Below are positions 20,201 through 26,200 of a DNA stretch of 30,805 nucleotides, piece after piece (position 1 is the stretch's first letter; each line of letters opens with the position of its first letter). The position numbers were made by a program. Source of the DNA: a virus; UHGV virus genome UHGV-0077717. One strand, 5' to 3'.

Positions 20201-23200
20201 GTCATGCCCGGCGTCGATGAACTCACGCTGTTTGCTGTATGGCGTAAATTCATATAGCAGGTGTGTGTTCCGGTAGTTCTCTTCTTCTTCGAGTAGCTCG
20301 AGCAACTCGATTTGCTCTTCGTCGCTCAGGTTATCAAGAATCGCGTCCAGTTCCACGGTTGAATAGCTCCTTGATACGAGAGCGTCGCTTATCGCGATCT
20401 CCCTTATCAGGTGTCACGTCTTCAACTTGCGACTGCTCTTTGAGGCCCAAATCACGGGCGATGATGTTAGCGTTGAGAAGGTCAGCGGCTGCGCCAGAGA
20501 ACTTCTGGTCGTAGATGATGTCTTCCGCTCGTGATGTGACGTCAGAAAAACCTTCCATTGACCGGAAGGTTCCCCATGTTTGCCTGGTGATATCAAGGAA
20601 GGTACACAATCCTGAAATAGTCATGGCTCGCATCTTAGGGACATTAGCCTTAATTATTTCTCCCTGATATGAAAATACCTTACCCTCCCATAGCGGGTTA
20701 TCATCAGCCCACTCGAAGTATTCACAACAAGCTGCCCACAGCGCCTCAGGCGATTCGAATTTAGGATTTCGCCCATGACTACTGCGGGCCTCCCAAAATC
20801 GGTTGCCCTTTGGTGCTGCCATATTGATTATTTCCCTTCTGCTTGCTTATCCCATTCATCGCGGAATTTGGATGGGTTGTCGAAACCTTGAGTTGCCATG
20901 TTTATGCTCCGGTGGTGAACAGGTCTAACGCTTCCTTCGATTTACGCACCGCTTCGAATGTGCGGATCGTGATATCTGAATTAGCGCCGCCTGACTGGAA
21001 GTGAATTTTGAATAGCTCAAGCTTCAGCTCGTCAGTGCCAATGAACTGAAATGCTTCTTCTGCGGCTGCGTTCTGGTTCATGACCAGTTTGTAAATCTCT
21101 AACTGGAATTTCTGTTCTTCAGTCATGGGAATAATCTCTGCCATTGTTGGCTCCGTTTATCCGTTAAAAGGGATATCAGTTAAGATATCCCGTGCAGGGT
21201 ATAAGCCATTGTCGAGACCACTCATTGAATGGTCTCTGCAATAACCGATGTCTTTCCATCAGTCCGCCACCACAAAGAATCTTTTTTGCCATAAGGCTGG
21301 AGGTTCATCTTTCAGTGGCTGCCAGTGTTATTTCCCCACTTTCTGGCTTGGGTTGTTTCGCTGTACTGCCGCAACTGGTGGTGCACAGATTTAGTTAAAT
21401 CTGTTCTCGCCTGAACTATCTTTTACATACCCGGATTGTGGGGATGTAAATCACGGTTTCATTATCAAGCCCACCCGTAGATGGGCTTTGGAATGGTCAC
21501 TTTGGCAGTCCTGGGATCGATATTTGCGCCTGCTGCTCAAGCCTTTCGATTCTTGCTATGAGTTGCGGTTTTTTGATCCTGCCCCAGCGGTTCAGCAAGC
21601 GTCCTGACATACTGGCAACATCCTTTTCCTTCATGAACTCCAGCATTAACTCGTTGTGCTCTCTTTGGTATGAGTGAGCCATCTCCATCAGCCTGTCACG
21701 CATCCAATTAAATGCTTTGATAAACGCCTCTTTGATGGCGGCAGCTTTTTTGCCGGTAAACGACATGATGATGTACATCGCGCCGTCTTTGGAAATTTCA
21801 TATTCAACATACTGATTACCCTTGTGTTCATAGGTAACCCGCGAAAAGTTGCTGGTTAGAAATTCATCCGAACAGTCTAGCTTTTCGATTTTCTGAATGA
21901 TGTGGTGATGCTGCTTGTCGAAGTAAGCTGCTACCTTGCGGGAGGTTGTGATCACGCGATCACCAGAAACAACCACCATGTCCCGGAAATCGAGATTAGC
22001 CAATTGATGATTCATAGCGTCTTTACCTTTTAGAAAGTGAGCCTGTCTCACAGAAAAGCCGCCCCGAGATGGTCGCCACCATATACGGCAGTTCTCAGGC
22101 TCAACTTTCTGAAAGGCTCGGGTGATGTAATATGCGCGTGAGATGCGCTGTGAAATTCAGATGTAAAAAAAGCCCCGCATCGCGAGGCTCATTAAATGGA
22201 CTTTGTGATTTGCAAAAAAATTATTTCAGGCATTGCGTCCTGATGTATTCCTGCAGGTAGTTAACCTGCGCGGTTATCCTGTCGATTCCACTTCGGAGAC
22301 GGTAATAATTGAGTTCAGCATCTGCTGTAAGTCTTGGGCTTTCTCCATCGCCCATGCCGCTGGCTCCGGTCGTTGACTTTGCACAGGTGGCGGCGACTTG
22401 CAGGCGCTTACGACCAGCAGAAACATCAGCACGGAGACTTTCGATAGTCGCGTTAGCATCAGCAAGCTCCTTTGTGTATCTGGCGTCGAGTTCTGCTACA
22501 TCACGTTGACGCTTCCGCATGTCAGCGATGGTGGCGTTCGCCTTCTCCAGTTCTCTGGCATTTTTGTCGCGCTGGGCTTTGTAGGTAATGGCGTTATCAC
22601 GGTAATGATTAACAGCCCATGACAGGCAGACGATGATGCAGATAATCAGAGCGGAGATAATCGCGGTGACCCTGCTCATACCTCAATCTCTCTGACCGTT
22701 CCGCCTGCTTCTTTGAATTTTGCTATCAGGCTGTCAGCCTTATGCTCGAACTGACCATAACCAGCGCCCGGCAGTGAAGCCCAGATATTGCTGCAACGGT
22801 CGATTGCCTGACGGATATCACCGCGATCAATCATCGGCAAAGCGCCACGCTCTTTAATCTGTTGCAGTGCAACAGCGTCCTGGCTTTTCGGAGAGAAGTC
22901 TTTCAGGCCAAGCTGCTTGCGATAGGCATCCCACCAACGGGAAAGAAGTTGGTAACGTCCGGCGGCTGTTGATTTGAGTTTTGGGTTTAGCGTGACAAGT
23001 TTGCGAGGGTGATCGGAGTAATCAGTGAATAGCTCTCCGCCAACAATGACGTCATAACCATGATTTCTGGTCTTCTGACGTCCGTTATCAGTTCCCTCTG
23101 ACCACGCCAGCATATCGAGGAACGCCTTACGTTGATTATTGATTTCCACCATCTTCTACTCCGGCTTTTTTAGCAGCGAAGCGTTTGATAAGCGAACCAA

Positions 23201-26200
23201 TCGAGTCAGTACCGATGTAGCCGATGAACACGCTCGTTATATAAGCGAGATTGCTACTTAGTCCGGCAAAGTCGAGAAGGTCACGAATGAACCAGGCGAT
23301 AATGGCGCACATCGTTGCGTCGATTACTGTTTTTGTAAACGCACCGCCATTATATCTGCCGCGAAGGTACGCCATTGCAAACGCAAGGATTGCCCCGATG
23401 CCTTGTTCCTTTGCCGCGAGAATGGCGGCTAACAGGTCATGTTTTTCTGGCATCTTCATGTCTTACCCCCAATAAGGGGATTTGCTCTATTTAATTAGGA
23501 ATAAGGTCGATTACTGATAGAACAAATCCAGGCTACTGTGTTTAGTAATCAGATTTGTTCGTGACCGATATGCACGGGCAAAACGGCAGGAGGTTGTTAG
23601 CGCGACCTCCTGCCACCCGCTTTCACGAAGATCATGTGTAGAAGGCCGCAGCGTAACTATCACTGATGAATTCAGGATAGCCAGTGGCTACGGCTCAGTT
23701 TGGGTTGTGGCGGTCGGTGCTGAACTCCGACTTAATGACGATAGGCGTGTACCGACGCCTCGTTTTACTTCCTCCGCTTTCACGGCTTCACCCTAGACCA
23801 GCTTTACGAAATCCTCGTAAACCTAACCGCGGCAGATATGACCGGCACGGTGTGCCATATCACGGACCGGCGGGTGTCTCGTTCACCTGATTAACGCATC
23901 AGCCTGCGTATTCACCACAACGATAAGAGCACTGCGCGGCACCTTTCACCAATTCCGCGAGGTCTGCGGGTTCAATGCTCTTACCTGTTGTGCAAATAAA
24001 AAAGCCACCGTTGCAACTTAAGAGTCACTAACGGCAGCTTACCTTCTAATTATGGCTAAATGGATAATTGCATGTCAAGGCTTTTAACAGCAATATGCTT
24101 AACTTTCTCAACACGTTTACGCATTTTGAAAGCATTTTGCATCGGCTGGTATAAAACAAATAATGACGCTTTCAGGATGTCGTCAATTTCGTTTCTACAG
24201 GTTGACAGTGAAGGTTTTCTCCATCCCTCGCCACCACGTCCACACATCTTGCGTGGCTTTGCAGTCGCGTGATAGTAGGATGCAATTGCTCGCTTAGATG
24301 AACCATGAGCGTAGTAGCTGAGGAGGATGCCAAAGGCTTTCTTGTCAATGTACATGACGGAATCGACGACCTGAGAAATCAACATTCCATCATCATCATT
24401 ACACATTGGCCTTGTCATAACTCTTCCCGGCTCTACGCTCTCCATGAACTTAGCTATTACGCTGCTCATGCGCTTTTCCAGACGACCTGAATAAACCCAT
24501 GCCCCCCACAGTTCAAGCCAGCCATTCAGCCAATCGTGCTGTTCTTTGGTGAGGTTTAGTTCTCTTATGCTCATCGCCTTCCCTTTTTGCCTGGCGTTAC
24601 CATCAGGACGCCGTTAACTATTACGTGACGCTCACCTTTGCTGTCTCGGTTGTACTTGAGCACTGTTCCTCTTGCGCAGGAAAGCATCCTCGCCACTTCG
24701 GTCTGATTGCCTCGTGTCTGAATAAGAAGCTCTGGTATCGTTTGAATTGTGGCGTTCATGCGTTCTCCAGTTCGGTGATTTTTATTCCAAGCCGTCCGCC
24801 TGGTACTTTCACACCACGAATTACGCGAATGTCATCGAATTGCTCGTCGTCTTCCGCAAATCCGGCGTGGATAAGGGAATCGAGTAAACCTTTCAGGATG
24901 TTATCGAGGTCGCGGCGGCGGGAGTCTGGAACGTCTGCGATGACTTTGATGCGGAGTCGTGATTTGGTGAAAATGTCTAACTTGAGTTGGCGGATGATTT
25001 GCTGAACGTCTTTTCGGTATTTCTGGCCTTTATCGCTGATGTAGTATTGGCTTCCCCGTCTTCGCCAGTAGGTGTTCACCGACGGCGGGTATGGAAGCAC
25101 AAACTGATATTCGTTCATGGCTTAATCTTCCCCTCCTTCAGCAGTATCGCCTGCGTCCTGATCACGCCTTCCAGGTGGGAAAGTCTGGCGTCTTTGTTGT
25201 CGAGGTTATGGGTGCGTCGGTCGATTTCATCGTGACACGCGCTACAAGCCCATGCGCCGATCAGGTCGTCAGGTTTCATTCCCGTTCCGCAAATTCCAGC
25301 CATCCGGTAATGTGCCAGAACTGTAGTTTCATGGTTGCCATTGCATACGCCGTAAATACGTACCTGGCATTCTCTGCCGCGTGCTTCTTTGCGTAGGTTA
25401 GCCATTAAGCAGCCTCCCCGGTTACTTTCAGCATTCCGTTATCGAGCAGCTTTCTGGTCAGCCACTGTTGACCACGCCCGGTGATTTTTGTGGTGAACGA
25501 TATCTGTATTCCGTGATTTGTGTTGACCGCTGTTTCTTTCACTGTGAAATAGCCGCGATCCATATATTCCTGCATTGGCACATTGCGCCGGGAACCTGAA
25601 GCAATAAGGATTTTGTGATCGCGCATCCACGCAAACAGTTTGTTCGGACCAATACCGACAACCTTTGCAAAGTTTCCAATCAAAATTCCGCTGGCTTCGC
25701 CAACTCGATCGGCAAACTCAACTTTAGGTGCGGCAATTGCGAGCTGGTTTTCCAGTTGCATTTTCTGCTCAGCAAGGTCAGCAGCAAGGCGCAACGCTTC
25801 CGGTAGCGTTTTGGGGATATTAACCGCAGCTTCTTCAAGCTCTCGCCAGCGGTCAACAAGGCGAGCGGTGAACTCTGGCGACAATTGGGCGACGACAATA
25901 ATGCTGTCTCGCTTTCCTTGTTCGCCCTCGAAGACGTAGAAATAACGCTTCCCGGTAATAACACCTAAATCATTGATTATGTTAGTGTGCTGCAATGCAG
26001 GAGGCTTGATAACGCCACGTTTCACCAATCTATCTATGGATACTTTTACATTGCTATGGCGGCTTTCTACCAACTCAGCGATTTCAATGCTTGTCATTTT
26101 GATGGCGTTGCCATTTATTAACTCATTCATCGTCTTCTTCCTCGTACATTGAGCTATTCGGATCGCTCATCAGCTCTGCGCAGCAATCGGAGCACACGTG

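Follow-up and report, generated by a model that had tools for sequence, protein, structure and literature searches.

Ant, Rha, and Roi of a P22-like coliphage: antirepressor names and one credible antirepressor

Can a single phage genome carry three antirepressors? The window analyzed here, the whole 30,805-nucleotide stretch of UHGV virus genome UHGV-0077717, raises this question, since the original prediction named three antirepressor-type genes in it: ant in an immI-like region, a gene in the nin region (here called roi), and rha. All three open reading frames were found where they had been placed, each on the minus strand. Profile searches for Phage_pRha and ANT/KilAC matched both domain families, and a Pfam search found no AntA domain in any of the three proteins. 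As judged from its sequence, the window belongs to Lederbergvirus and resembles CUS-3 and HK620; it is a P22-like coliphage or prophage. Its closest DNA matches are the Lederbergvirus coliphages CUS-3, JEP4, Gally, and HK620, and CUS-3 position 107, just inside attL, aligns to window position 1. The repressor gene of this phage lies outside the window, beyond position 30805.

The three genes are the already described, already known Ant, Rha, and Roi of P22-like and lambdoid coliphages, and the expression "three antirepressors" stems from annotation names. The reading that we favor, with a probability of roughly 85%, is that of the three proteins one is an antirepressor and the other two are DNA-binding regulators of lytic development linked to IHF, each encoded in its usual, independently exchangeable position. 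The original prediction of multiple independent antirepressor modules was thus upheld for Ant, by its immI circuit and its homology to P22; for Roi and Rha, the label comes from family names only. By analogy with P22 Ant, which provides the experimental precedent (PMC3064807), only Ant among the three belongs to a family shown to act as an antirepressor. No experimental precedent for direct repressor inactivation by Roi or Rha was found in the searchable literature.

Ant and the immI region

The ant gene (3920..4843, minus strand) encodes a protein of 307 amino acids, in which Pfam recognized P22_AR_N (8.5e-45) and P22_AR_C (5.8e-30). BLASTP aligned the protein with P22 Ant over its full length at 57% identity (E = 1e-120). 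The final ~110 amino acids are near-identical to those of P22 Ant, whereas the N-terminal and middle parts have diverged; identity to CUS-3 Ant is 93%.

As the original prediction of an immI-like ant implied, the surroundings of the gene are those of immI, and the control circuit is complete, with a divergent mnt, arc upstream of ant, and sar over the ant start. The mnt-like repressor gene (5370..5621, plus strand; 83 amino acids), recognized by its Pfam Arc-like ribbon-helix-helix domain (3.1e-10), matches P22 mnt in length and position, and the 160-11H1 prophage encodes a 100% identical copy. The arc-like repressor gene (5124..5264, minus strand; 46 amino acids) matched Pfam Arc, PF03869, at 3.7e-8. 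A promoter scan placed overlapping divergent promoter-like sites, putative Pant (minus strand) and Pmnt (plus strand), at 5295..5341, and an inverted repeat with 18-nt arms at these sites (5299-5337) is a candidate operator; both assignments are at the consensus level. The sar antisense RNA over the ant start region (4845..4910, plus strand) scored 62.1 bits with Rfam RF00262 (gathering score, 43; E = 1e-10). Consensus matches further suggest a promoter-like site for sar at 4809-4837 and a terminator with a 14-bp stem at 4876-4907, both on the plus strand. Likewise, a consensus scan marked a terminator-like hairpin directly 3' of ant (3883..3902, minus strand), with an 8-bp stem followed by a T-run.

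The window shares with P22 immI the gene order (mnt, arc, sar, and ant) and the site between the injection-protein/sieA region and the tailspike gene, as well as a two-domain Ant, an Rfam-recognized sar, and divergent promoters. Unlike P22, it has an additional 73-amino-acid gene between arc and ant, orf73 (4906..5127, minus strand), which belongs to phrog_11805 (unknown function) and has no match in Pfam or PADLOC. A 97% identical copy of orf73 occupies the equivalent place in the prophages of Escherichia coli strains 165 and 779. A PADLOC search with Ant, Rha, Roi, and the small immI-adjacent genes likewise gave no credible defense-system match. The repressors also differ from those of P22: Mnt aligns with P22 Mnt over 36 residues only, at ~42% identity, and Arc has 46 amino acids versus 53 in P22. 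Since Mnt aligns weakly and Arc is shorter, the specificity of this immI probably differs from that of P22.

Ant is, from its domains and gene neighborhood, a credible antirepressor sitting in a complete immI circuit. If the circuit operates as in P22, Mnt would presumably keep the ant promoter off in the lysogen, and Arc together with the sar antisense RNA would limit Ant after infection. Once made, Ant would bind noncovalently to a C2/cI-type repressor and inactivate it, and its targets could possibly include the repressors of other lambdoid prophages. For P22 Ant, inactivation of the P22 repressor and also of lambda cI has been reported (PMC3064807), which by analogy makes cross-induction by the window's Ant plausible; this is a long-known idea.

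Rha and Roi

The rha gene (21497..22015, minus strand) encodes a Rha-family regulator of 172 amino acids at the position of P22 ORF201. It is located between Rz (22221-22679) and the small terminase gene (20334-20822), in agreement with the Rha-family protein predicted between the lysis and terminase genes, and the local gene order, Rz-rha-DUF2560-gene 3, is that of P22. Its Pfam domains are Phage_pRha (1e-23; 84.1 bits against a cut-off of 29.9) and ORF11CD3 (8.8e-24), and TIGR02681 phage_pRha was matched with 76 bits against a cut-off of 45.95. P22 ORF201 and phi80 Rha have the same two-domain architecture, and P22 ORF201 likewise has Rz on one side and, on the other, the DUF2560/ORF80 gene, which precedes the small terminase gene. 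Compared with P22 ORF201, however, the window Rha is another allele, 45% identical (E = 1e-53), with a shorter N-terminus and 172 versus 201 amino acids. This exact allele is very widespread: of 5426 complete E. coli genomes, 187 have the gene with its flanks, and the identical protein is listed in 10265 index blocks.

Between Rz and rha lies a terminator-like hairpin (22170..22190, minus strand), whose 9-bp stem contains 6 GC pairs and precedes a T-run, and a promoter scan of 20800-22400 gave no sigma-70-like promoter for rha. Because a terminator-like hairpin precedes the gene and no promoter-like site does, read-through late transcription of rha would fit, which is consistent with rha being a late-operon gene that comes after the lysis genes. 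The AlphaFold2 (AF2) model of Rha (pLDDT, 85.6) has a small alpha/beta N-domain, which is HTH-like, and a long helical hairpin; the protein is the homologue of P22 ORF201 and phi80 Rha. A Foldseek search of the model against the PDB returned nothing below an E value of 0.06. The weak top matches were winged-helix DNA binders, namely, PadR, the pCW3 relaxosome accessory protein, and Stf76. By sequence, solved structures gave no more than chance-level matches for Rha and no match for Ant or Roi. Inhibition of phage growth in IHF mutants is the only effect reported for Rha, and this IHF-conditional phenotype argues against Rha being an antirepressor.

The nin-region gene, roi (25405..26130, minus strand), encodes a protein of 241 amino acids, 240 of which are identical in Roi of HK022. 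It is flanked by ninF and ybcO/rusA, and HK022 has the same nin neighbors, with ninF upstream and a ybcO-like gene and rusA downstream. Apart from HK022 being a siphovirus and the window phage a P22-like podovirus, there is no notable difference between the two. A protein combining Rha-N with KilA-C had been predicted here, and both its position in the nin region and its ANT/KilAC domain (9.4e-33) were borne out. The Rha-type N-terminus is weak, with a Phage_pRha score of 25.1 bits, below the 29.9 cut-off, at an E value of 2.6e-5 over the whole model. An hhalign comparison of the Roi and Rha families aligned Roi residues 6-57 with Rha residues 17-67 (52 columns; 86% probability; E = 5e-6). Direct BLASTP of Roi against Rha gave no meaningful similarity, the likeness appearing in profile comparison alone. 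The AF2 model of Roi was poor (pLDDT, 42), the alignment consisting of 11 sequences that are 84-99% identical. In PHROG and NCBI, Roi-like proteins carry the name "anti-repressor".

HK022 Roi is reportedly a DNA-binding protein that halts lytic growth when IHF is lacking. It reportedly binds a site in its own gene, beside an IHF site. In the window, Roi would likewise bind DNA and be translated from the delayed-early nin transcript, and its near-identity to a protein reportedly characterized as DNA-binding, not repressor-binding, speaks against an antirepressor function. The IHF consensus, WATCAANNNNTTR, has two matches in the 30.8-kb window, one of them inside roi, and at least two matches occurred in 44 of 100 shuffles. 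The match in roi (25966..25978, minus strand; nt 153-165 of the gene), which is a consensus motif only, is identical to one at nt 153 of HK022 roi, and the motif holds the same position in four distinct roi alleles with differing flanks. Since it overlaps the conserved residues I-N-x-L-G, protein-level constraint could account for part of its conservation.

Other readings of Roi and Rha

An unlikely alternative is that Roi works as AriS of Listeria does: phage genes would be controlled by its Rha-like N-domain, and its KilAC part would curb the SOS response of the host (RecA), thereby adjusting the induction of co-resident SOS-inducible prophages without an attack on their repressors. Roi does contain KilAC and a putative Rha-like N-domain, and AriS (AntA/AntB + ANT/KilAC) is built in the same way, with KilAC at the C-terminus and, at the N-terminus, a regulatory domain that can be swapped. 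The different activity documented for HK022 Roi, reportedly own-gene DNA binding linked to IHF, stands against this possibility. The KilAC of AriS, the one that has been dissected experimentally, acts as an inhibitor of the SOS response and does not bind a repressor, and pRha+KilAC variants are mentioned alongside it (PMC9043618). Nevertheless, the AriS data come from Firmicutes, a different phylum, the likeness considered here is one of domain layout, and AriS gave no SOS inhibition at native levels (PMC9043618).

We also give slim odds to a wider proposal, in which Roi and Rha, having in common a Rha-type N-domain and a reported block of lytic growth without IHF, might form a double host-state checkpoint, or the KilAC of Roi might damp SOS as in AriS; co-resident prophages would then be modulated without repressor binding, besides the action of Ant.

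It is highly improbable that all three proteins are working antirepressors of different specificities by which several co-resident prophages are induced or interfered with. Each protein does carry domains of proteins named antirepressor, and the coordination of several prophages by trans-acting antirepressors, which would favor such a role, is reportedly an established idea. P1 Ant1/Ant2 have the KilAC domain as well, Ant1 being described as a known phage anti-repressor (PMC9043618), and P22 Ant acts on lambda cI (PMC3064807). However, roi and rha sit in delayed-early and late lytic units, respectively, without an immI-like control circuit of their own, and in the single dissected case KilAC acted on the SOS response (PMC9043618). 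Prophage cross-talk in P22-like coliphages would run through several channels if Roi or Rha did act on repressors or on SOS, but nothing here indicates this.

The three positions in related phages and domain exchange

The favored reading, one antirepressor and two regulators in exchangeable positions, also agrees with the relatives, in which the ant, rha, and roi positions are filled or empty independently of one another. P22 and the prophages of strains 165, 779, and MS 21-1 have ant and rha without roi, strain 160-11H1 has ant and roi without rha, and Gally has rha and roi without ant; APC_JM3.2 and CurroJimenez have rha only. All three genes are found at matching positions in CUS-3 (CP000711), a phage of the same group, with the similar Ant described above and a Roi 87% identical to that of the window. 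Its Phage_pRha+ORF11CD3 protein, encoded between Rz and hkbM, is the P22-like allele, 47.6% identical to the window Rha. JEP4 (MT740315), of the same group, also fills the three positions, and its Roi and Rha are 100% and 99.4% identical, respectively, to those of the window; at the immI position, however, it has an Ant variant with Bro-N+P22_AR_C, versus P22_AR_N+P22_AR_C in the window. With these positions occupied in both CUS-3 and JEP4, the combination is nothing unusual, and the co-occurrence of ant, rha, and roi is ordinary mosaicism. The prophages of E. coli strains 165, 779, and MS 21-1 had been considered as further three-gene carriers and were rejected for their lack of roi. For this group the gene set is the standard one, and beyond annotation hygiene it has little significance.

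All five Pfam domains of Ant, Rha, and Roi are listed as members of the Bro network (PMC10111431). Swapped domain partners were seen in the relatives (Bro-N+P22_AR_C, ORF6N+P22_AR_C, and KilA-N+P63C), and by their domain content Ant, Rha, and Roi are members of this described domain-swapping network of phage regulators. Calling Rha-, KilAC-, and Bro-type proteins "antirepressors" transfers the function of a few prototypes to proteins with different documented activities. When the concatenated ant+rha+roi DNA was used as the query against a phage collection, Stx phages took the top ranks; in these, roi sits next to an ant of the P22_AR_C type.

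Domain content and antirepressor potential of the three proteins

The three open reading frames (ORFs) of the original prediction, which held that one genome carries three antirepressor-type genes, lie exactly where proposed on the minus strand: Ant (positions 3920 to 4843, 307 aa), Rha (21497 to 22015, 172 aa), and Roi in the nin region (25405 to 26130, 241 aa). Pfam searches assigned P22_AR_N (8.5e-45) and P22_AR_C (5.8e-30) to Ant, Phage_pRha (1e-23) and ORF11CD3 (8.8e-24) to Rha, which was also placed in the Rha family by NCBIfam, and ANT/KilAC (9.4e-33) to Roi. Roi also covered the whole Phage_pRha model, with a score of 25.1 bits that is below the Pfam cutoff of 29.9 bits. 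Direct BLASTP detected no similarity between Roi and Rha; a profile-profile comparison of the two families aligned Roi residues 6 to 57 with Rha residues 17 to 67 (86% probability, E value of 5e-6), which supports the weak Rha-like N-terminal call in Roi. The AntA domain was absent from all three proteins in the domain search, PDB sequence searches with them were empty (chance level for Rha), and PADLOC gave no match. A published "Bro network" of domain-swapping proteins includes all five domains found here (PMC10111431).

Across its full length, Ant shares 57% identity with P22 Ant, and it is a domain-level mosaic: its C-terminal ~110 residues hardly differ from those of P22 Ant, while divergence is much greater in the N-terminal and middle parts. 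P22_AR_C is joined to P22_AR_N in this protein, to Bro-N in phage JEP4, and to ORF6N in a relative (L016), and the CUS-3 Ant is 93% identical to that of the window. The surroundings of ant form a complete P22-type immI region, with Mnt-like (83 aa) and Arc-like (46 aa) ribbon-helix-helix proteins, overlapping divergent promoter-like sites with an inverted repeat (18-nt arms) between them, and the sar antisense RNA (4845 to 4910; 62.1 bits against an Rfam threshold of 43 bits), which covers the ant start and has its own promoter-like site and terminator. The protein identities, the gene positions, and this intact immI architecture are direct observations. As in the prototypes, Ant would inactivate C2/cI-type repressors once control by Mnt, Arc, and sar is bypassed. 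The gene inventory proposed originally was correct, and its interpretation was only partly supported: Ant is a credible antirepressor, and cross-induction by it is plausible, both being classical knowledge, whereas the antirepressor reading of Roi and Rha is based on names.

Roi, Rha, and a possible link to IHF

The nin-region protein shares 240 of 241 residues with HK022 Roi, and its neighbors are also shared. Clerget and Boccard (1996) reportedly described Roi as a DNA-binding protein whose site lies inside its own gene, adjoining an IHF site, and which prevents HK022 from growing lytically in IHF mutants. One of the two IHF consensus matches in the whole window is inside roi (AATCAANNNNTTA, 25966 to 25978, minus strand, nucleotide 153 of the gene). 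The motif occupies the identical roi nucleotide in four distinct alleles (roi of the window, L001, L003, L007, L011, L016, and L023), and all of its specified bases, which include a rare TTA Leu codon, are unchanged, while the N positions and flanks vary. This candidate motif is consistent with the reported Roi/IHF site; the evidence is suggestive and not decisive, because the motif overlaps conserved codons. Homologues of Roi abound in E. coli and Salmonella, under the database names "DNA-binding protein" or "KilAC antirepressor," and in Stx phages roi adjoins a P22_AR_C-type ant.

Rha is 45% identical to P22 ORF201, which occupies the same position (Rz-rha-DUF2560-small terminase). Henthorn and Friedman (1995) reportedly found that this gene family, in phi80 and P22, inhibits growth in IHF mutants. 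A terminator-like hairpin lies 3' of Rz, and the promoter scan found no promoter-like site upstream of rha, which fits expression of rha by read-through of the late transcript, as we infer. The AF2 model of Rha, which is confident (pLDDT of 85.6), has a small alpha/beta helix-turn-helix-like N-domain and a long helical hairpin, with no significant relative among solved structures. This exact rha allele is widespread: of 5426 complete E. coli genomes, 187 contain the gene together with its flanks, and the index of the collection lists the identical protein for 10265 blocks. We also observed that a stretch of ~350 bases separating rha from the DUF2560 gene (21145 to 21496), whose coding strand has no annotated gene, accompanies rha at 97 to 99% identity in many E. 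coli genomes; the scan found no promoter- or terminator-like sites there.

Judging from their prototypes, Roi and Rha would be DNA-binding regulators of lytic development whose harm appears without IHF. Alternatively, Roi could have a role like that of the Listeria phage protein AriS. The AriS KilAC domain, the only one dissected, inhibits the SOS response on overexpression, and the AriS N-domain acts in phage gene regulation (PMC9043618); by analogy, such a role is possible for Roi.

Combinations in relatives and layout of the window

DNA searches identified P22-like coliphages (Lederbergvirus) as the relatives of the window, namely, CUS-3, JEP4, Gally, HK620, IME10, and many E. coli prophages. 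The ant, rha, and roi positions are filled or empty independently among them. P22 and the prophages of strains 165, 779, and MS 21-1 have ant and rha without roi, strain 160-11H1 has ant and roi without rha, Gally has rha and roi with only mnt in immI, and APC_JM3.2 and CurroJimenez have rha only. All three positions are filled in CUS-3 (Ant, a Phage_pRha+ORF11CD3 protein, and Roi, positioned as in the window) and in JEP4, which has the same Roi and Rha and a Bro-N+P22_AR_C protein at the immI position; they are also filled in one draft genome, with an ORF6N+P22_AR_C protein beside Roi, plus Rha. Three such genes in one genome are thus not unusual, and neither the genes nor their combination is new; among the relatives compared, no second genome was found to carry exactly the same three alleles.

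On the minus strand, the gene order runs from the tailspike gene through immI to the injection protein, head, and terminase genes, then DUF2560, rha, Rz, R, S, and Q, followed by ninH, rusA, ybcO, roi, ninF, ninX, ninE, ninB, and primase/helicase. No tRNA genes were found between Q and the holin gene (23460 to 24055), whereas three close relatives, the strain 165 prophage, vB_EcoP-720R6, and CurroJimenez, have tRNA-Thr and tRNA-Asn there. As in CUS-3, an integrase gene adjoins the tailspike gene, and position 1 of the window aligns with CUS-3 position 107, just within attL. The end region of the window (1 to 1243) begins 106 bases within the left (attL-side) end of a CUS-3-type prophage. The sequence probably comes from an integrated prophage or was cut at a prophage boundary.

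Small genes around immI

Inside the immI operon, the arc-ant interval harbors a gene of unknown function (phrog_11805; 4906 to 5127, minus strand, 73 aa) whose end coincides with the sar terminator position. The interval is free of genes in P22 and the 160-11H1 prophage, whereas the strain 165 and 779 prophages have a 97% identical copy. A 105-aa ORF (phrog_19844, unknown function; 5618 to 5935, plus strand) directly follows mnt with a 4-base overlap, begins with a signal-peptide-like sequence (MKRIAILLLLCLSSIANA), and had no match in Pfam or PADLOC; it is probably cotranscribed with mnt and would therefore be expressed in the lysogen. Moreover, a 143-aa protein at the P22 sieA position (6175 to 6606, minus strand) has a lipoprotein-type signal (…LSGC) and faint similarity to Cor superinfection exclusion proteins (E value of 7.7e-4), and may be an exclusion lipoprotein.
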